Origin: a virus
Taxonomy: Duplodnaviria > Caudoviricetes
Reading direction: 5' to 3' (one strand)
Virus record (IMG/VR): IMGVR_UViG_3300044723_000506
Span: 1-36,563 of that record
Length of the DNA: 36,563 nucleotides
The notes under the pieces are model-generated. The model saw nothing but the letters and a program-made list of their open reading frames with translations, made no database searches and had not been told where the DNA came from. Numbering within the stretch: position 1 is the stretch's first letter; each line of letters begins with the position of its first letter. Shown piece by piece: positions 7 through 36,563 of this stretch. Both the position numbers and the translations under genes were made by a program.

Positions 7-175
7 CTGGCACGAATGTTGCAACACAAGCAAAACACGTGCCAACATTGGACATGCAAGAGTCGTGCCAATAGTTATCCACAGGTTATCCACAGGTTGC
101 CCCATGCAATACTCGTGCCAACTCTGCGCCCTAGCAAGACTCGTGCCAACTTTGGACATGCAAAAGTCGTGCCAA
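7..175. promoter_or_regulatory. Array of six sigma-54 (-24/-12) consensus sites
   Basis: + strand 7-23 CTGGCACG-AATG-TTGCA. - strand 29-45 (TGTT/TTGCT), 55-71 (ACTC/TTGCA), 105-121 (AGTA/TTGCA), 133-149 (AGTC/TTGCT), 159-175 (ACTT/TTGCA), all starting TTGGCACG with GG-N10-GC spacing. Confidence 0.85.
75..94 (+). promoter_or_regulatory. Two tandem perfect DnaA boxes (TTATCCACA), 11-bp period
   Basis: TTATCCACA at 75-83 and 86-94, identical to the high-affinity R1/R4 box of E. coli oriC. Confidence 0.75.
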
Positions 176-391: not shown

Positions 392-787
392 ATGACCACT
401 GAACTTTCCGAAGTTAAAAAAAGAGGTCGTGGCAGACCCCGTAAGTCAGAGTTAGCCGCTGTAAAACCCGGTAACAAGGGTAAAGTGGGTAGACCCAAGG
501 GTGACGCCGCTATAATCAACGAGTACAAATCTCGTATGTTGGCTTCCCCTAAGTCTAAAAAGGTCCTTGAGACTATTTTTGATGCTGCCTTAGACAACGA
601 CCATAAGAATCAAGCTTCTGCTTGGAAGTTAATTATGGACCGTATGTTGCCTGTAGGTGCATTTGAGCGAGAAGTAGTGAAGGACGGTGGTAGAAACGCC
701 ATACAGATCAACATTACTGGTGTTGGTACTGTAGACGTAAGCGACGACAGTGACGTTATCGAAGGAGAAGTAGTGAATGAGTCTTAA
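392..787 (+). CDS. terS: Terminase small subunit (putative)
   Basis: Upstream of terL; AT-hook-like KRGRGRPRK and GRPKG N-terminus; IQINITGV C-terminal strand. Confidence 0.65.
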   Translation: MTTELSEVKKRGRGRPRKSELAAVKPGNKGKVGRPKGDAAIINEYKSRMLASPKSKKVLETIFDAALDNDHKNQASAWKLIMDRMLPVGAFEREVVKDGGRNAIQINITGVGTVDVSDDSDVIEGEVVNES

Positions 788-7887: not shown

Positions 7888-9039
7888 ATGGGTATCTTTA
7901 GAGGTACAGGTGGTACTGGAGATGCGACTACAGATGCTGTAGCGTCTCAAGTCGGTATCGACGCAACGACTGCTTCAACTAAAGCAAACGAGGCTGCTAA
8001 TTCAGCCACAGCCGCAGCTAACTCAGCTACTGCTGCTGCAACAAGTGCATCTTCTATAGACGGAGACGTAGTAGCAACGGCTAATAATGCTGTTGCAGCG
8101 GCAACCAGCGCAACCAATGCTGCAACTTCTGAAACTAACGCTGGCAATAGTGCAACTGCTGCTGCAACCAGTGAGACTAACGCAGCTACAAGCGCCACTA
8201 ATTCAGCAGCCTCTGCAACCGCCTCAGGAACGTCAGAGACGAACGCAGCGGCCAGTGCTACCACAGCTACTACTAAGGCCTCAGAAGCCGCCACAAGCGC
8301 CACAAATGCGTCTGGGAGTGCTACAGCAGCCAGCACCAGTGCAACTAATGCAGCAACCAGCGCCACTAACGCGGGGACAAGTGAAAGCAACGCAGCCACC
8401 AGTGCCAGCACAGCGTCAACTAAGGCCACTGAGGCAGCTTCCAGTGCTACTAACGCAGCGGCTAGTGAGACTAACGCATCAACTTCAGAAACCAATGCAG
8501 CCGCAAGCGCCACGAGCGCATCTGCAAGTGCCACTACGGCTACTACTAAAGCAACGGAGGCAAGCACAAGTGCAACCAATGCTGCAACATCGGAAACAAA
8601 TGCAGCGACTTCGGCTACAAACGCAGCAACTTCGGCTACAAACGCTAGTAACTCTGCGACGGCTGCTGCTACGTCTGAAACTAATGCTGCTACTTCCGCG
8701 ACCAACGCTGCAACCTCCGCAACCAACGCATCTAACAGTGCAACAGCGGCGGCTACGAGCGAAACTAATGCAGCAGCCAGCGCAACCGCAGCGGCCACAA
8801 GTGAGTCAAACGCGGCAGCAACCTTAGCAGCTTCGGCACTAAAAGCTAACAATCTATCTGACTTAGCTAATGCAGCAACTGCCCGAACTAACTTAGGTTT
8901 AGGCACAGCGGCTACTACTGCTGCTTCTGCTTATGCTACGGCAGCACAGGGTACTCTAGCAGACTCAGCACTACAGTCAAACTCAACTTTAAACGCAGAC
9001 AACATGACAACTGGTACGCTCTCAGGCGGCACTTACTAA
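7888..9039 (+). CDS. Ala/Thr/Ser-repeat fibre protein (coiled-coil shaft)
   Basis: Recurrent ATSETNA/ATSATNA heptads, NNLSDL..ARTNLGLG fibre motif, C-terminal GGTY. Confidence 0.8.
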   Translation: MGIFRGTGGTGDATTDAVASQVGIDATTASTKANEAANSATAAANSATAAATSASSIDGDVVATANNAVAAATSATNAATSETNAGNSATAAATSETNAATSATNSAASATASGTSETNAAASATTATTKASEAATSATNASGSATAASTSATNAATSATNAGTSESNAATSASTASTKATEAASSATNAAASETNASTSETNAAASATSASASATTATTKATEASTSATNAATSETNAATSATNAATSATNASNSATAAATSETNAATSATNAATSATNASNSATAAATSETNAAASATAAATSESNAAATLAASALKANNLSDLANAATARTNLGLGTAATTAASAYATAAQGTLADSALQSNSTLNADNMTTGTLSGGTY

Positions 9040-11870: not shown

Positions 11871-12255
11871 TAAGCTTATAGGGCCAGTCACAAGCTTGCT
11901 AGACAAGTTTATACCTGACGCTGACACTAAGGCCAAGTTGGCGCATGAAATTGCAACCATGTCGCAGAAATACGCGCAAGAAATTGCTAAGGCGCAGTTA
12001 GAGGTCAACAAAGTAGAAGCGGCTCACAAGTCACTTTTTGTTTCTGGATGGAGACCCGCAGTGGGTTGGGTGTGTGTCTTGGGTATGTTTGGTAACTTTA
12101 TTACGATTCCTTTTTCTAACTTTGTACTTGCTCTGTTTGGGTTAGACATTATGATACCTCTAGTTCCTCTTGAAACCATGATGCCTGTGTTGATGGGCAT
12201 GTTAGGGCTGGGCGCTATGCGAACGTACGAAAAGAAAGCAGGAGTGTCTAGGTAA
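11863..12255 (+). CDS. Holin, GTA-type 3TM family
   Basis: LDKFIPD, SLFVSGWRPAVGW and MLGLGAMRTYEK motifs. Likely start MIDKL at 11863. Confidence 0.85.
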   Translation: MIDKLIGPVTSLLDKFIPDADTKAKLAHEIATMSQKYAQEIAKAQLEVNKVEAAHKSLFVSGWRPAVGWVCVLGMFGNFITIPFSNFVLALFGLDIMIPLVPLETMMPVLMGMLGLGAMRTYEKKAGVSR

Positions 12256-14519
12256 TGGCTAAAAGATCAGCACCTACTAAAAGAACTATTAAAAGAGGTC
12301 AGGACACTTTAGTTGGAACTTCTAAAGGTGGTATGCTTGAAGTTTTAACGGAAGAAACTTCACAGGATTTACCAGCCACTCAAACAAGAAACATTAGAGT
12401 TGATGATCCTATGGGTTCTATAGGCAATGCGCCTAAAGCTTGGTGGGACGTAGCAGACCCTAAGGCTTTCTTTGGTGTACAGGGCGACCGTACAGACGAA
12501 CAGAAAAAGCGAGTACAACAGTTTAGACAGGAGTGGGGAAACGTAAGGGGCGCTGCCGCTGTCAATGGTTTAATAGACGGTACGTACACAGCGGATCAAC
12601 TAATTCAAAACTGGGGTGCTCAAAACTTAGCTTCAACTATTAAAGCCGATACCTACAGTTTAGGAGAGTTTACTGAAGGAAGTGATTTCGGTTCTTATTT
12701 AGCATCAGAATGGGAAAACCTTAAGGAGTGGTATGGCGATAAGGACGTAGGTTTAGGAGATATATCTCTTGCTCCTTTACAGGGCTTAGGAGGGTCTAAA
12801 GGTAACGAAAGAGGTGTTTCCGTAACTTCAAACCGTTTAGTTCAATCACAATATTCAAGTGCTTTACAGGCTGCTGCTGCACAAGCTGGCGTACCTATAA
12901 GCGTTATTTCTCCCGATGGCGCACAGTATGAGCTTAATATAGGACAGTTTGATGACGTTCCTTTAGGAGGATATAAGCAAACTGTAGAACCTTTCACTAC
13001 TCTTGATAAAGTTGGAATGATCATGGGTTCTGTTATTAAGGCAGTTTTAATAGCGGGTGTTACGGGAGAAATAACTGGGGCTCTTAACGCGTTAGCGGGT
13101 GGAGTTCAGGGCGCAGGTGGTACGGTACAGACAGCTAATGGAGTAATGACATTTTCAGATGTTGCTGCTACGGCGGATCAAACCAAAGACTTGTTAGATA
13201 CAGCTTCAGACATAATATCTATTTATCAAGATGTTTCAGCGGTTGCCTCAGAAATTGAAACAGCTACTGATTTAATATCTGAAGTAGCGGGTACAATAGA
13301 TCCTGACAAAGAAGTACCAGAAGACGTAATAACAGAGGAAGTAGTCCCGTTAGAAGCAGACCCAGACTTAATGGGTACTGTGACTACTGAAGAGTTAGGT
13401 ACAGGAGAAGTGTTTGGTGCAGAGGATTTAGTACCAGAAACTATAGTTGACGAAGTAGTAATTGACGAAATACCTGTAGAAATAACAGAACCTGAAGTAG
13501 ACATAGAAGTAGATCCTTTTCTCCCAGAACAACCCGTAGAGGCAGTTGATGAATCAGCGGCTGACGGTGGTGGTGGCGGTGAGGAAAGTGGAGGCGCTAG
13601 TACCGCCGGAGCTGGCACTACTGCTACTACTGGGGGAACTGATGCTGCTGGAGGTTCTGATGCTGCTGGAGGAGCTAACGGCGATCCTGTTATTACTAGG
13701 GACGTTGGGGCTGTTGATGATGATCCTTTACTAGTAAACGAAGGAGATATTGTAGGAAGACAGATTAAAGAAGCTTATGAAGCTGAAACTGATCCTGAGT
13801 TAAAAGAAGCTTTAAAAGAAGAGTTAATAGCTTGGTTAGAAGGTGGGGCTGTAGACCCCGAGATTATTCTTTCAACAGAGCAACCTCCTGAAAGTACTTT
13901 TGATCCTAGTGATAGTACCGGCGGAGACACTGGTGACTCTGGTGACTCTGGTGATGCAGGAGAAAGCGAAGACGATCCTTTCGGAGTTGGTGATTTACTA
14001 GATATTCCTATTGATACTTCAGAATCAGCAGAATCAACAGTCCCTACAGATGTAGATACTTCAGGTGGTGACGATGGCGTCACTGATGATGGCTTAGGTG
14101 GTGACGATGGTGTCACTGATGACGCAGGAGGCGCTGTAGACGGAGGTGGCGCTGGTACTGACGGAGACGGTGTAGACACTGGTGACGGCGGGGAAGCTGG
14201 TGGTGGCGACGATACTGGCGATGGAGACGGTGGTGGCTCTGGAGACGGAGATGGATCTGGCGACGGTGATGGCTCTGGGACAGGTACAGGTACTGGAGAA
14301 GGTGATGGGGATGGCGACGGTGATGGTGATGGTGACGGTGATGACGATGGTAGCGGCAGTGGGCGCTCTGGTGGTGGTATGTTAGGCGTTGGACAGCCCT
14401 ATATGGGAGGAGTTTCTTATCAGCTTCCCGGTTTTACAGGAATAGCTTATCAACCAAAAGACTACACTACTGAACTTGATCGAATCATTAATGAAAGTTT
14501 GTTTAAAGGAATGATCTAA
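12255..14519 (+). CDS. Large acidic protein with Gly/Asp repeats, function unknown
   Basis: 754 aa, coupled to both neighbours; E/D-rich middle and GDGDGS repeats. Confidence 0.8.
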   Translation: MAKRSAPTKRTIKRGQDTLVGTSKGGMLEVLTEETSQDLPATQTRNIRVDDPMGSIGNAPKAWWDVADPKAFFGVQGDRTDEQKKRVQQFRQEWGNVRGAAAVNGLIDGTYTADQLIQNWGAQNLASTIKADTYSLGEFTEGSDFGSYLASEWENLKEWYGDKDVGLGDISLAPLQGLGGSKGNERGVSVTSNRLVQSQYSSALQAAAAQAGVPISVISPDGAQYELNIGQFDDVPLGGYKQTVEPFTTLDKVGMIMGSVIKAVLIAGVTGEITGALNALAGGVQGAGGTVQTANGVMTFSDVAATADQTKDLLDTASDIISIYQDVSAVASEIETATDLISEVAGTIDPDKEVPEDVITEEVVPLEADPDLMGTVTTEELGTGEVFGAEDLVPETIVDEVVIDEIPVEITEPEVDIEVDPFLPEQPVEAVDESAADGGGGGEESGGASTAGAGTTATTGGTDAAGGSDAAGGANGDPVITRDVGAVDDDPLLVNEGDIVGRQIKEAYEAETDPELKEALKEELIAWLEGGAVDPEIILSTEQPPESTFDPSDSTGGDTGDSGDSGDAGESEDDPFGVGDLLDIPIDTSESAESTVPTDVDTSGGDDGVTDDGLGGDDGVTDDAGGAVDGGGAGTDGDGVDTGDGGEAGGGDDTGDGDGGGSGDGDGSGDGDGSGTGTGTGEGDGDGDGDGDGDGDDDGSGSGRSGGGMLGVGQPYMGGVSYQLPGFTGIAYQPKDYTTELDRIINESLFKGMI

Positions 14520-25790: not shown

Positions 25791-26622
25791 TGAATACCTC
25801 TACTAAATAACGTGGACCTGATGAATATGCGAACCCTCTTACGGAAGGCCAACACCGTTTTTTGTAAGAGCAGTAGGAGCATCCGATAGCGAGTTTCTGG
25901 TTGCCACTTTTTCCATCTGCGATAGGCTTGTAGCATACTTCGGGTGGTTCCTCCTGCTCCACTAGCTTTTTTATGCGTTCAATCCTTTCTTCTATATCAT
26001 AAGAGATCAGGTCGTACACAGGAGCTTGTGTGTCCTCTGAGTCGTACAGTAAGTACGTCAGGTGCCCATTCTGTTTGTCCATTGCCAACCAGCCAAACTT
26101 GGTTTCACCTTCTGAGTGAGCGTAACCCTTGATTTGACCTATGTACCCGAAGGGGTCGTCGTAAGCCAGAGTACCTTCTTTGAACTTCTTGAACCCGTAG
26201 GTGGAAGTGGACTTAACGTCAGTCACAATCCCGTCGATCCTACAGTCCATAGACCCCTTGATGCCGTTGACCTCACACTTCTTCTGCTCATCAGTCACAG
26301 TGTGACCAGCAGCTCTTGTGAGGAACAGTAGCAGTTCTTCAATGAGATGACCGTAGAGGAACTTGACGTACGTGTGTGGCTCTATGTCTTCTCCTTTTTC
26401 CACGTCGTTGTACACGTTCCAGAGGAAACGCTCGTCGCGCCCAATGTTCGACATACGTAGTTTACGCGAGTCGTCTCGGACCTCTGTGAACTCCTTACGC
26501 ATAAGGTCCTTCACGTTCTCACCGAACAGCTCGATGCAGCTCTCGATGTCTACTCCTTCGGCTACCTCTTTGGTAGACACTAGGCTGTAGATGTCGCTCA
26601 CTAGGTTGTACGTGTTTTTCAT
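25756..26622 (-). CDS. PD-(D/E)XK exonuclease
   Basis: LRMSNIG, GHLIE, GSMDCRIDG..DVKS, Y..Q..GY and CSYC. Likely start MKNTY at 26622. Confidence 0.8.
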   Translation of the reverse strand: MKNTYNLVSDIYSLVSTKEVAEGVDIESCIELFGENVKDLMRKEFTEVRDDSRKLRMSNIGRDERFLWNVYNDVEKGEDIEPHTYVKFLYGHLIEELLLFLTRAAGHTVTDEQKKCEVNGIKGSMDCRIDGIVTDVKSTSTYGFKKFKEGTLAYDDPFGYIGQIKGYAHSEGETKFGWLAMDKQNGHLTYLLYDSEDTQAPVYDLISYDIEERIERIKKLVEQEEPPEVCYKPIADGKSGNQKLAIGCSYCSYKKRCWPSVRGFAYSSGPRYLVEVFNEPKVQEIEVS

Positions 26623-27086
26623 TTGTAATCTTCCGCTGTACTGGAGACGACAACTCTGGCCTGCTCCGGTGTGCATTTGAACCACTCTCCTCTGCGTTCG
26701 TAGAGCTTTTGTAGCTCTGTGTGCGCCTGTGATTCTGCCTGACGACGATCGTTTACGTCATACCTATATTGTAACACATAATCTCTAAAAGGTGAAGAAG
26801 TTTGGTAGTTGTTTAAGCGGTCCTCAGCGTCAACAGCCATACCTACCTTTACCCAGTCAGGGAAGTTAGGGTTGGTAATGGCGTACACCTGACCCTCGAC
26901 ACTGCTCTCGTACTTCTCTAGGCTGCTGAAGGCTGCTTGTTCAAAGTTCTTGTATCGTCCCGGCTTGTGCAAAGGGTGGGTTTGTCTAATGTACTTCCCA
27001 TTTACCCACATGCGATTATTGTTTCTAAATTTTTGCCTTTCAGGATTGTCTTTATAGTACTTGCCGTTTACTTTTGCATAAATCAT
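26619..27086 (-). CDS. GIY-YIG-like (T5orf172/MUG113) domain protein
   Basis: GQVYAITNP..WVKVGMA..RLNNYQTSSP..E..H..GEWF. Confidence 0.8.
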   Translation of the reverse strand: MIYAKVNGKYYKDNPERQKFRNNNRMWVNGKYIRQTHPLHKPGRYKNFEQAAFSSLEKYESSVEGQVYAITNPNFPDWVKVGMAVDAEDRLNNYQTSSPFRDYVLQYRYDVNDRRQAESQAHTELQKLYERRGEWFKCTPEQARVVVSSTAEDYK

Positions 27087-32534: not shown

Positions 32535-32769
32535 AATAACTTCCCTCTGCTACGGTTGCGGTCATTGCGTCGTACTGGCTCGCCGTTAGGGCGTAGTGGT
32601 CGACGGGTTTATCGTCTATGATGATATCACAGAACAGATACGATTCATGTAAACAATTCTCTGGCTCATAGGGCTGGTAGTCCTCCAGATTGAACAGGAT
32701 CAACTCCCCGTCGTGCATTGTGTGGTAATCGTGGTTTTTAAAGCTCATCCTTAGATGTAACTGGCTCAT
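32524..32769 (-). CDS. Hypothetical protein
   Basis: AAGGAGGT RBS before MSQLH at 32769. Confidence 0.65.
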   Translation of the reverse strand: MSQLHLRMSFKNHDYHTMHDGELILFNLEDYQPYEPENCLHESYLFCDIIIDDKPVDHYALTASQYDAMTATVAEGSYYEH

Positions 32770-33260
32770 TGTGTCACCTCCTTTTGTTGTAACCATGCTG
32801 GCATGGGTCGATTGGTCCAACGCATGTCGATTTCGTTGCGTCTTGTGCGGTAGTATGCCCGATACGCTGCCACAGTGTCAACACCTCGACAATCGTCGTA
32901 CATACACTGCGGAGGATCGACAAAAGGCGCTTGTGGCAGGTCCCTAGGGATCACCTTCAGGTACTGTAGTTTTTCCTTTTCTGTCTTGTGAATCTTGCCG
33001 TATCTGTGTGAATACTCAGCGAACAGGGCCTCTAGGTGCTCTAGGCCCCACTTGTACGCATTTTGGGACGATCTGAGCCATTTTGTGCTTGGGTGGTTCT
33101 TGTGGGTCACCTTGTACACAAAGGGCGCTTGTGGGGTCTCTGAGAGCCTGTGAGCAGTGCTGAGCATTTGGGCAGTCTCTAGGATCATCTTGACCACGTG
33201 TTTGTCGCATAGGGCCTGAGCTGCTGCTACCGGCTCCTCCTCAACGAAAAATAGATTCAT
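32766..33260 (-). CDS. Pyrimidine-dimer DNA glycosylase (DenV-like family)
   Basis: MNLFF....CDKHVVKMILETAQMLSTA, HKNHP..W, EYSHRYGKIH and AYRAYY. Confidence 0.75.
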   Translation of the reverse strand: MNLFFVEEEPVAAAQALCDKHVVKMILETAQMLSTAHRLSETPQAPFVYKVTHKNHPSTKWLRSSQNAYKWGLEHLEALFAEYSHRYGKIHKTEKEKLQYLKVIPRDLPQAPFVDPPQCMYDDCRGVDTVAAYRAYYRTRRNEIDMRWTNRPMPAWLQQKEVTQ

Positions 33261-34805: not shown

Positions 34806-35657
34806 TTAGGCTGCTTCTACTGCTTCAGCTTGTGAAAACTTACACAAGTAGTCAAAAGCTTTTTGGGCTTGACTAGCGGCCGTCATGAGCGCTTTTGTGT
34901 CGCTTTTGAGTACTTTTAACCAGCTTTTGAGGTACTTCGCGTGATTGTCCTGATAGCCCTGATGCACGTCTAAATGAGCACAAAGGAACGTGCTAGACAA
35001 CTCTGCTACCAGTTCCTCGAAGGCATAGGCTTCTTCCCCAAACCTGCTAGTGTTCAAGCCCCTGTCAAGCCTAGACTCGTGCCCGGACCAATGACTCAAT
35101 TCATGCAGTAAAGTACTGTAGTATTCTTGCTCGTTTATGAATAACTCTTTTACGGGCATGTTGATATAGTCGGCAGAAGGTACGTAGAAGGCTCCCCGTG
35201 ATCCGTCTCGCGAGTGGTTCAGGGTCGCACCTGTAGCAACAACAAAAGCCTCTGCTTGTGCTGAATCCTCGAAGGTTCTAGGCTCAATTGTAGGTGCGTT
35301 GTAATTGTCAACCTGAGCTGCTGAGAATACACTGGCAGCGCTGAAGCCTATCAGCATGTCTTCCTTAATCTTCGCCGGGTCCTTCTTGATTATAGGCCGG
35401 AGGATCTTTGTTGACGTTTCACCTTTGCGTACTTGCGCGCCTAGTTCCTGCCATTGTTTATAGGTCGCCCACTGACCACCGCCGGCAATTAAAAGCATGA
35501 AGGCATTTGTGCCGCTGTAGGGTCGACCTGTAAGAGCATTAGTAGGGAAACCGTCGCCTGTGTTTTGCCATGGTCTAATCCATTTACCCTCGACCATGCC
35601 GCCTTCTATGGCGTCAATGAACTGCTGAGTGATTACCGCTGTAGCGTCCTGTTTCAT
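34806..35657 (-). CDS. ardC: ArdC-like antirestriction / ssDNA-binding protein with zincin-like domain
   Basis: W.RPW, YSGTN, WATYKQWQELGAQVRKGE, AFYVPSADYI.MP, HELSHW and YAFEELVAEL. Confidence 0.88.
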   Translation of the reverse strand: MKQDATAVITQQFIDAIEGGMVEGKWIRPWQNTGDGFPTNALTGRPYSGTNAFMLLIAGGGQWATYKQWQELGAQVRKGETSTKILRPIIKKDPAKIKEDMLIGFSAASVFSAAQVDNYNAPTIEPRTFEDSAQAEAFVVATGATLNHSRDGSRGAFYVPSADYINMPVKELFINEQEYYSTLLHELSHWSGHESRLDRGLNTSRFGEEAYAFEELVAELSSTFLCAHLDVHQGYQDNHAKYLKSWLKVLKSDTKALMTAASQAQKAFDYLCKFSQAEAVEAA

Positions 35658-35669
35658 CTTGTGTTTCTC

Positions 35670-35816
35670 CTATGCTTCCAAAAGTATGGCTAACAGTTCG
35701 CAGAGTCGTACAGTCTGCTCGCTGGTTATTTCTTTACCGCTGAACCTATTCTGGTTGATCTGTTCGGCCAGTGTTAAGGCTTCTTTGCGTCTGCTTTCTT
35801 TGATAGCTATTTCCAT
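35670..35816 (-). CDS. First early gene, 48-aa protein (not in ORF track)
   Basis: AGGAG RBS; MEIAIKESRRKEALTLAEQINQNRFSGKEITSEQTVRLCELLAILLEA. Confidence 0.65.
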   Translation of the reverse strand: MEIAIKESRRKEALTLAEQINQNRFSGKEITSEQTVRLCELLAILLEA

Positions 35817-35850
35817 CTGTGTCGCTCCTATTTAGTTTGTGGTGTCCTTG

Positions 35851-35878
35851 ATTTTACGGACGGATTCACGAATAGCAA
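35851..35878 (-). promoter_or_regulatory. Candidate early sigma-70 promoter
   Basis: TTGCTA-16 bp-TAAAAT with A-tract upstream sequence. Confidence 0.5.
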
Positions 35879-35979
35879 CACTTTTTCAGGTTTATTTTAC
35901 TTGTGTTGTGCCTCGTGTTGTGCTAGGCGCTCTAAGGGTCCAACATAAGCCCACACACTTGTCAACCCCAGTTTCCCCA

Positions 35980-36202
35980 TGCAAAACCTCGTGCCAACTT
36001 GCACACTGGCACGCATGTTGCACCGCATGCAAGACTCGTGCCAACTTTGGGCGCGCCTCGTGTTGGCACGAATGTTGCACCGCATGCAAAACCCATGCCA
36101 ACTCTGGACCTGGCACGAATGTTGCAACACAAGCAAAACCCATGCCAACTCTGCGCCCTAGCAAGACTCGTGCCAACTTTAGACATGCAAAAGTCGTGCC
36201 AA
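35980..36202. promoter_or_regulatory. Array of nine sigma-54 (-24/-12) sites
   Basis: + strand 36006-22, 36063-79, 36110-26. - strand 36028-44, 36085-101, 36132-48, 36160-76, 36186-202 (all canonical spacing) and 35980-97 (one extra base). Confidence 0.85.
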
Positions 36203-36563
36203 TGTTGGGCCGGGGGAGGGGGTTGACTTGTGTTGACAATTGTAGTAGCCACTCAGGCACAAAAAAGGTGAAAACTAGCAAAAAGGACCCTTAATTAAAC
36301 GCATGTAAGCCCATGATTTCACTCGTGTTACTACTACTGCCACTACTAAGCTATAAATAGCTTGACTTATGTGAAGACTTATGTTATACTATTGTTGTAA
36401 TTAGGGACAATTTGTGTTATGACCACTGAAATTAAAAAGAGAGGTCGTGGCAGACCCCGTAAGTCAGAGTTAGCCGCTGTAAAACCCGGTAACAAGGGTA
36501 AAGTGGGTAGACCCAAGGGTGACGCCGCTATAATCAACGAGTACAAATCTCGTATGTTGGCTT
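36104..36563. repeat. Terminal redundancy, right copy (includes late promoter and partial terS from 36419)
   Basis: 460 bp aligning to 1..545. terS starts MTTEIKKRG here versus MTTELSEVKKRG in the left copy. Confidence 0.95.

Follow-up and report, generated by a model that had tools for sequence, protein, structure and literature searches.

Entry of the phage T7 genome is pulled by transcription, and short repeats lie beside the ends of that genome. The datA locus of Escherichia coli is a non-coding chromosomal cluster of high-affinity boxes that titrates DnaA in an IHF-dependent manner. According to PMC4591121, the sigma-54 (RpoN) holoenzyme binds in vivo as an inactive complex irrespective of condition, and the low-information positions of its motif are 1, 8, 9, 10, and 12. 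In the first-entering DNA of phage T5, the injection stop signal region contains non-coding paired DnaA boxes that were proposed in silico to hold the DNA (10.1101/866236). Phage YuA was reported to depend on host sigma-54 (PMC5053324), and the cobaviruses, which share the two-arm layout described below, have their genome ends in the gap between the arms, with a G+C-rich 5' part (PMC6775973). The element described here is a dense array of sigma-54-like sites at positions 35980-36202 of the virus record IMGVR_UViG_3300044723_000506 (Duplodnaviria; Caudoviricetes), a stretch of 36,563 nucleotides that is referred to as the window. The literature searched, which excluded most subscription papers, yielded no account of such arrays in phages.

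The window was a marine, podovirus-like phage by gene content (45 open reading frames scanned), and the array was located in the gene-free gap where an early arm and a late arm diverge, flanked by two sigma-70-type promoters. A sequence-only reading of the window had counted nine sites of the form YTGGCAYG-N4-TTGCW in this array and six in a left copy, with the GG-N10-GC spacing kept in 14 of the 15. Both counts were reproduced: eight exact matches were located at 36006-36202 and six at 7-175, and a ninth right-hand site at 35980-35997 had a 5-nt spacer. No match occurred elsewhere in the 36,563 bases, and 0.34 matches were expected even when one mismatch was allowed (100 shuffles). The spacer, which had been described as variable, indeed occurred in several sequences but was not free, with T as its third base in 14 of 14 sites. 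The sites, the DnaA boxes, and the conserved segments beside them were arranged as follows.

35980..35997, minus strand: ninth right-hand site, sigma-54-like, its spacer being 5 nt long (GG-N11-GC); predicted to be non-binding
36006-36022, plus strand, and 36028-36044, minus strand: first convergent pair of exact sigma-54 motifs, 5 nt apart
36063-36079, plus strand, and 36085-36101, minus strand: second convergent pair, 5 nt apart
36110-36126, plus strand, and 36132-36148, minus strand: third convergent pair, 5 nt apart, starting 47 bp after the second
36160-36176 and 36186-36202, minus strand: two tandem exact motifs that face the early arm; the distances from the preceding minus-strand site are 28 and 26 bp
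7..175: left-allele array of six exact motifs, starting at 7 (plus strand) and at 29, 55, 105, 133, and 159 (minus strand)
75-83 and 86-94, plus strand: two consensus DnaA boxes, 11 bp apart, in the left allele only (consensus from 10.1101/866236)
35937..35969: conserved anchor on the left side of the cassette, carrying a minus-strand -35-like hexamer that lacks a matching -10
36210..36285 (left copy about 183-258): conserved core right of the cassette, in which the consensus of 70 distinct stretches has a G-run and then an A-rich block; a candidate terminus, terminase site, or origin

The array was also flanked by short inverted repeats with outward-pointing -35-like hexamers (35960-35969 and 36219-36228), neither of which had a good -10.

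The left array, described in the sequence-only reading as a copy, was a real second array, but it was an allele and not an identical repeat, and its two DnaA boxes had been overlooked. When the ends of the window were compared, positions 103-545 and 36129-36563 overlapped with 94% identity and a 9-nt indel within the first late gene, and the arrays differed. Identical end copies, as in a direct terminal repeat, were not found at the two ends, and the IMG/VR record is classed as linear. Positions 2-260 were 98.8% identical to the relative L134, the right-hand junction was seen again in L148 and L152, and contigs of runs X2 and X15 branched into the form with DnaA boxes. Because the ends were 94% identical with an indel and both forms occurred in independent runs and contigs, the window ends represent two alleles of a single locus, assembled from a mixed population. 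An allele with 11 sites was present in the relatives L132, L134, and L143, which matched the number of about 11 distinct sites obtained earlier by merging the two arrays.

The motif was examined in 80 loci that had been selected through the protein encoded beside the array. In the 150,276 bases upstream of the first late gene, 260 sites had the 4-nt spacer, one site had a 2-nt and one a 3-nt spacer, and none had a spacer of 1 or 5-8 nt, whereas the downstream control of 209,009 bases contained no sites. The 10-bp GG-GC spacing was thus kept at the homologous locus of relatives (260 versus 2 sites). When the search was limited to GGCA-N6-TTGC, 187 distinct sites were obtained, and the positions left free in the search contained T at 2 (100%), C or T at 7 (100%), G or A at 8 (100%), T at 11 (81%), and A or T at 17 (97%), with positions 9, 10, and 12 of the spacer variable. 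The sites resembled bacterial RpoN -24/-12 sites, among them silent E. coli sites located by ChIP-seq, in the 17-bp GG-N10-GC motif, in the variants at positions 7, 8, and 17, and in the T bias at position 11, which was found in 21 of 42 intergenic sense sites by a hand count of Table 1 (PMC4591121). They differed from bacterial sigma-54 sites in forming dense two-way half-turn arrays without an activator or enhancer pattern. In IMG/VR, tandem pairs were present in about 770 stretches (extrapolated from 10 of 64 parts), and a control with a 5-nt spacer gave 2. Triple tandem arrays were present in about 350 viral stretches versus 39 in GTDB (596 billion bases of prokaryote genomes), and 19 of these 39 were inside frames of at least 200 codons, compared with 5 of 103 viral clusters. 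Variable-spacer sigma-54 arrays were also seen on contigs, possibly of phage origin, in assembled bacterial genomes (L207, L210, L226, and L241 in Bacteroidota bins; L214, L230, L235, and L237-L239).

For the helical phasing, 238 motif-picked loci were clustered, and one cluster, whose 85 loci are related to the window, was left out, so that 103 clusters remained. Adjacent same-strand sites were 21-50 bp apart in 92 of these unrelated clusters. Their spacings peaked at 26, 36-38, and 46-48 bp and dipped at 21-23, 31-34, and 42-44 bp, all of which were permitted by the search, and 115 of 155 fell no more than a quarter turn away from a half-integer turn. The p value was about 1e-4 or less with five null models, including uniform and decaying ones, and with spacings of at least 30 bp alone. 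In the window family, 196 of 212 spacings, which are not independent, were near half-integer turns, and the DnaA boxes were at whole turns, with 74 cases at 11 bp and 24 at 22 bp. The phasing points to selection for several bulky proteins bound simultaneously on opposite faces of the DNA. A 7-nt gap of convergent pairs, held in common with the Vibrio phage VpV262, was set aside as not special, since 41 of 53 such gaps in unrelated clusters were 3-7 nt and only two were 7 nt.

The sigma-54 identity put forward in the sequence-only reading passed all of the sequence tests proposed with it and was joined by the consensus at the free positions and by the half-turn phasing. Overall, the interpretation given in that reading found partial support. 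The array is real and strongly selected, and is very likely bound by sigma-54. Very probably, the host holoenzyme occupies the sites in the form of inactive closed complexes, with neighbours on opposite helix faces.

When 129 of 167 loci were used and the 700 nt upstream of the first late gene was compared, 93 distinct alleles were obtained. At least two sigma-54 sites alone were present in 44 alleles, at least two DnaA boxes alone in 27, both in 12, and neither in 10. Up to 16 DnaA boxes were found per allele, and the upstream totals were 330 sigma-54 sites and 228 DnaA boxes, compared with 27 and 32 in the downstream controls. The two motifs were anticorrelated over the 93 alleles (rho -0.49, kinship ignored). 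The differing arrays of relatives were located between two conserved anchors, both of which were found in 46 of 80 loci (L189 was shortened by a misplaced anchor). The sigma-54 array is dispensable, and a job specific to sigma-54 cannot be essential, because 37 of the 93 alleles had fewer than two sigma-54 sites and 27 of those had DnaA boxes instead.

Several kinds of cassette were seen in this slot. Arrays of 2 to 16 DnaA boxes with an 11-bp phase and in both orientations were present in L185, L188-L190, L391, L394, L402, L438, and L445. The cassettes of L141, L151, L154, L160, L161, L138, and L129 contained 12-bp and 9-bp direct repeats that retained only the -12 half, and these may be sites of some other binder or products of slippage. 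Other repeat types, including repeated -35-like hexamers without a -10, were present in L170, L174, L178, L374, and L169 and are possibly further host-protein sites.

Comparable sites were found in two cultured phages; blastn cannot detect such arrays in cultured phages. In VpV262 (AY095314.2), all six sites of the genome were located at 172-347 and were unannotated in the record, compared with an expectation of 0.0175 sites in the first 1,033 bases. The array lay 34 bp inward of the left terminal repeat annotated there (1-138) and before the early genes, not at the tip. VpV262 and the cobaviruses belong to the Zobellviridae, podoviruses without an RNA polymerase, whose structural and replication arms converge in the middle of the genome and diverge at a gene-free gap as in the window, and the six motifs of VpV262 lie in that gap. 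The protein relation is not close, however, since tblastx gave no match to VpV262 (E<1e-6) or ICP2 and four short matches to CW02. No site was present in ICBM1, RIO-1, ICP2, CW02, HP1, CVT22, or P12053L, and one was present in PA11.

In the T5-like phage pVp-1 (JQ340389.1), all four sites were located in two gene-free blocks around the pre-early genes (75922-76184 and 78480-78689), which correspond to the repeat-region gaps of T5, and three of the four were within about 40 bp of DnaA boxes. The first 12 kb of T5 contained DnaA boxes and no exact sigma-54 motif. The window resembles the T5 injection stop signal in having a non-coding cluster of host-protein boxes; the left allele contains one DnaA pair, and relatives up to 16 boxes, in DNA that may enter first. 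T5 differs in its 10-kb terminal repeat, A1/A2, and two-step transfer, no family of which was found among the window open reading frames scanned. YuA shares the use of host sigma-54 by a phage, but the first 50 kb of its record has three promoters, each of them single and ahead of structural genes, and its whole genome contained no sites by the array pattern.

The left ends of ICBM1, ICBM2 (first 1,200 bases only), LUZ24, and RIO-1 start with C-runs, like the minus strand of the window core. By analogy with these phages and with the cobavirus ends, the genome end is probably at or just beyond the G-rich core, near 36220, so that the array would precede the early promoter on entry.

The reading that we favour, with a probability of about 0.4, is that a variable non-coding cassette loads tightly bound host proteins onto the end predicted to enter first and holds that end in the cytoplasm. 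The host sigma-54 holoenzyme would occupy the sites as a row of stalled closed complexes, without a phage activator. The array would enter ahead of the early promoter, as in VpV262, and the bound proteins would prevent back-sliding and occupy the end until the sigma-70 polymerase starts about 100 bp further in. Sigma-70 transcription from the early promoter would then pull in the remaining genome. Any abundant, tightly binding host protein would suffice for this purpose, which would explain why sigma-54 sites and DnaA boxes are exchangeable. Since DnaA arrays take this slot too and an unrelated family carries both motifs in the DNA that enters first, occupancy would be the simplest role common to both.

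Several observations weigh against this reading. With its 220 bp, the array could ratchet in no more than 220 bp. Of 15 whole phage genomes chosen by hand, 13 had no cluster (ICP2, CW02, 1.157.O, MW202753, YuA, ICBM1, LUZ24, RIO-1, H4/4, HP1, PA11, CVT22, and P12053L, with single sites in H4/4 and PA11), so that the array is not needed for entry in general. The ten family alleles with neither array point the same way, the anticorrelation takes no account of kinship, and metagenome assembly may have produced chimeric links between cassettes and genes. Recent duplication of a 47-bp unit accounts for some of the regularity seen in the family. No host was found and the host may therefore lack rpoN, and the DnaA model of T5 is in silico only (10.1101/866236). 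With respect to the genome end, contig ends did not cluster in the 48 rows that stopped 1,100 nt or less upstream, where some rows repeat one contig, and the runs examined showed no start or end signal at the array. The terminase class scored under the cut-off with all three NCBIfam models. An exact contig of run X1 (35923-36112) had a depth of 134 versus 148 beside it, without doubling, although contig depth cannot decide termini. The starts of a few contigs, 457-498 nt upstream and close to the left anchor, may mark no more than the allele branch point.

The genes and promoters beside the gap were arranged as follows.

35851..35878, minus strand: sigma-70-type promoter of the early arm
36362..36390 (left copy 335-363), plus strand: sigma-70-type promoter of the late arm, with an extended -10
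392..787, plus strand: first late gene, encoding a 131-residue protein with an AT-hook; small terminase by position only
35670-35816, minus strand: first open reading frame of the early arm
34806..35657, minus strand: ArdC-like anti-restriction gene, second open reading frame of the early arm

These promoters (35878-35851 and 36362-36390) agree with the sigma-70-type promoters that had been claimed for both arms. The late arm on the plus strand (392 to 22878) contained terminase, portal, capsid, and tail genes, and the early arm on the minus strand (35816 to 22896) contained genes for a reductase, a polymerase, a primase-helicase, and ThyX, together with the ArdC-like gene. No RNA polymerase gene was found among the 45 open reading frames scanned. 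The window DNA polymerase was best matched by pelagiphages (48%), and the portal was 22-28% identical to that of HMO-2011-type phages. The runs containing the array were estuary, seawater, and sediment metagenomes. Searches for a cultured relative or a host of the window phage gave none. The protein encoded next to the array belonged to a family of 5,780 clusters.

The first two early genes had a near-identical leader from the ribosome-binding site to the start codon (35643-35658 and 35817-35830). Elsewhere in the window, a tail protein with 21-nt (7-residue) repeats was encoded at 7888-9039, a 754-residue protein that matched no family and has Gly/Asp-rich 18-nt repeats at 12255-14519, a pyrimidine-dimer glycosylase-like gene was located at 32766-33260, and a T5orf172-family gene (26619-27086) started 12 nt past the DNA polymerase gene. 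Contigs of the metatranscriptome run X15 were deeper over 35980-36097 than over the flanking genes; DNA carry-over may contribute, and this observation was not counted.

The main rival to retention of the entering end is a decoy, in which, after replication, hundreds of sites would titrate scarce sigma-54 or DnaA and thereby damp sigma-54 stress genes or host re-initiation. The datA locus is a precedent for DnaA titration, with non-coding boxes for a limiting host protein, but it involves DnaA only and depends on IHF, for which no pattern was found in the window gap. The near-maximal consensus and half-turn packing would maximise the bound protein per bp, the sites are in both orientations without an activator, the array is dispensable and variable like an accessory trait, and 98 of 103 unrelated viral arrays were outside long reading frames. 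A sponge, however, needs no fixed position, yet the position is fixed in the window family, VpV262, and pVp-1, and two unrelated, exchangeable targets would be required. Titration at entry, as the sequence-only reading had it, is weak by numbers, because one genome brings 9-11 sites compared with an estimated at least 250 on the E. coli chromosome (PMC4591121). We regard the decoy as unlikely but a serious contender.

The resemblance to sigma-54 sites could instead be due to chance, with the repeats acting as iterons for the small terminase or another phage protein, comparable to the short end repeats of T7. The array adjoins a terminase-like gene and the conserved G-rich core, cobavirus ends carry other short repeats, and the motif itself is a loose 11-bp direct repeat. 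When relatives with identical proteins of the 131-residue family were compared, one allele had nine sites and no DnaA box and another had 0-1 site and three boxes (pairs with differing arrays were L137/L138, L144/L154, and L158/L161), so the repeat type did not track this protein, whose terminase identity rests on position. The 131-residue protein had no PHROG or PDB match, its fold matches were limited to uncharacterised and DUF5681 phage proteins, and neither family nor fold searches supported a small terminase. The motif and its phasing also recurred in 103 clusters without this gene and in VpV262. Reading of the array by the 131-residue protein is therefore unlikely, and iterons of any kind have a low probability. 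Packaging iterons had been named at the outset as what would overturn the sigma-54 identity, and that objection is weakened.

About equally improbable is a hub for replication or concatemer processing, in which bound DnaA or polymerase would bend, melt, or insulate the DNA by the G-run and A-rich core. DnaA boxes with an 11-bp phase beside an A-rich block do resemble an origin, but the phage has its own primase-helicase and polymerase, sigma-54 arrays were accompanied by fewer than two DnaA boxes in 44 of 93 alleles, and the GC skew followed the coding strand without a separate origin mark. The parS, matS, and Chi patterns were absent from the window gap.

A use of the sites as true sigma-54 promoters, fired by a host activator and driving early genes or a short RNA, has a slim chance. 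It is favoured by the orientation of 238 of the 330 family sites toward the early arm and by YuA, which was reported to depend on host sigma-54 (PMC5053324) and whose record lists -24/-12 promoters. In convergent pairs with gaps of 3-7 bp, each site would cover the start site of its partner; a sigma-70 promoter already serves the early arm, and the YuA promoters are single and located before late genes. Six-frame searches of the window gave no match to the sigma-54 activator domain (PF00158) or to the sigma-54 DNA-binding domain, which bears out the earlier statement that the phage has no such activator, and patterns for NtrC, NifA, and IHF, the only ones covered, were absent from the window gap.

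Neutral slippage in a permissive gap, suggested by the 47-bp duplication and by degenerate 9- and 12-bp repeats in some alleles, is very improbable, because the cores are fixed while spacers and flanks change, the 5-nt-spacer control gave 2 compared with about 770, and the helical phasing recurs in unrelated phages. Two further candidates were rejected. A hairpin or structured RNA was discarded since the fold-back z of -3.2 follows from the two-way motifs and one-way alleles exist; Rfam gave no match for the array region. A transcription roadblock was discarded since intragenic sites had no roadblock effect in PMC4591121 and the window promoters diverge.

What is new is that DnaA arrays can take the place of the sigma-54 arrays, that the sites are phased at half turns, and that VpV262 can serve as a test system. 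The switch between sigma-54 and DnaA motifs points to occupancy by host proteins as the selected trait, which is directly testable by swapping, and the two cultured Vibrio parahaemolyticus phages with comparable sites make the idea testable now. Should the decoy prove true, the array would be a non-coding route for phages to silence a host regulon. More generally, and tentatively, many lytic phages may carry an exchangeable docking cassette at the leading end, where stalled sigma-54 polymerase or DnaA, each with its own helical rule, would grip the entering DNA, and the choice of motif would follow the presence of rpoN in the host; this joint proposal is possible, if doubtful. The full entry of phage DNA and the binder of the T5 injection stop signal are long-open questions. 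If true, the proposal would provide a general entry device free of phage protein and would explain the T5 injection stop signal.
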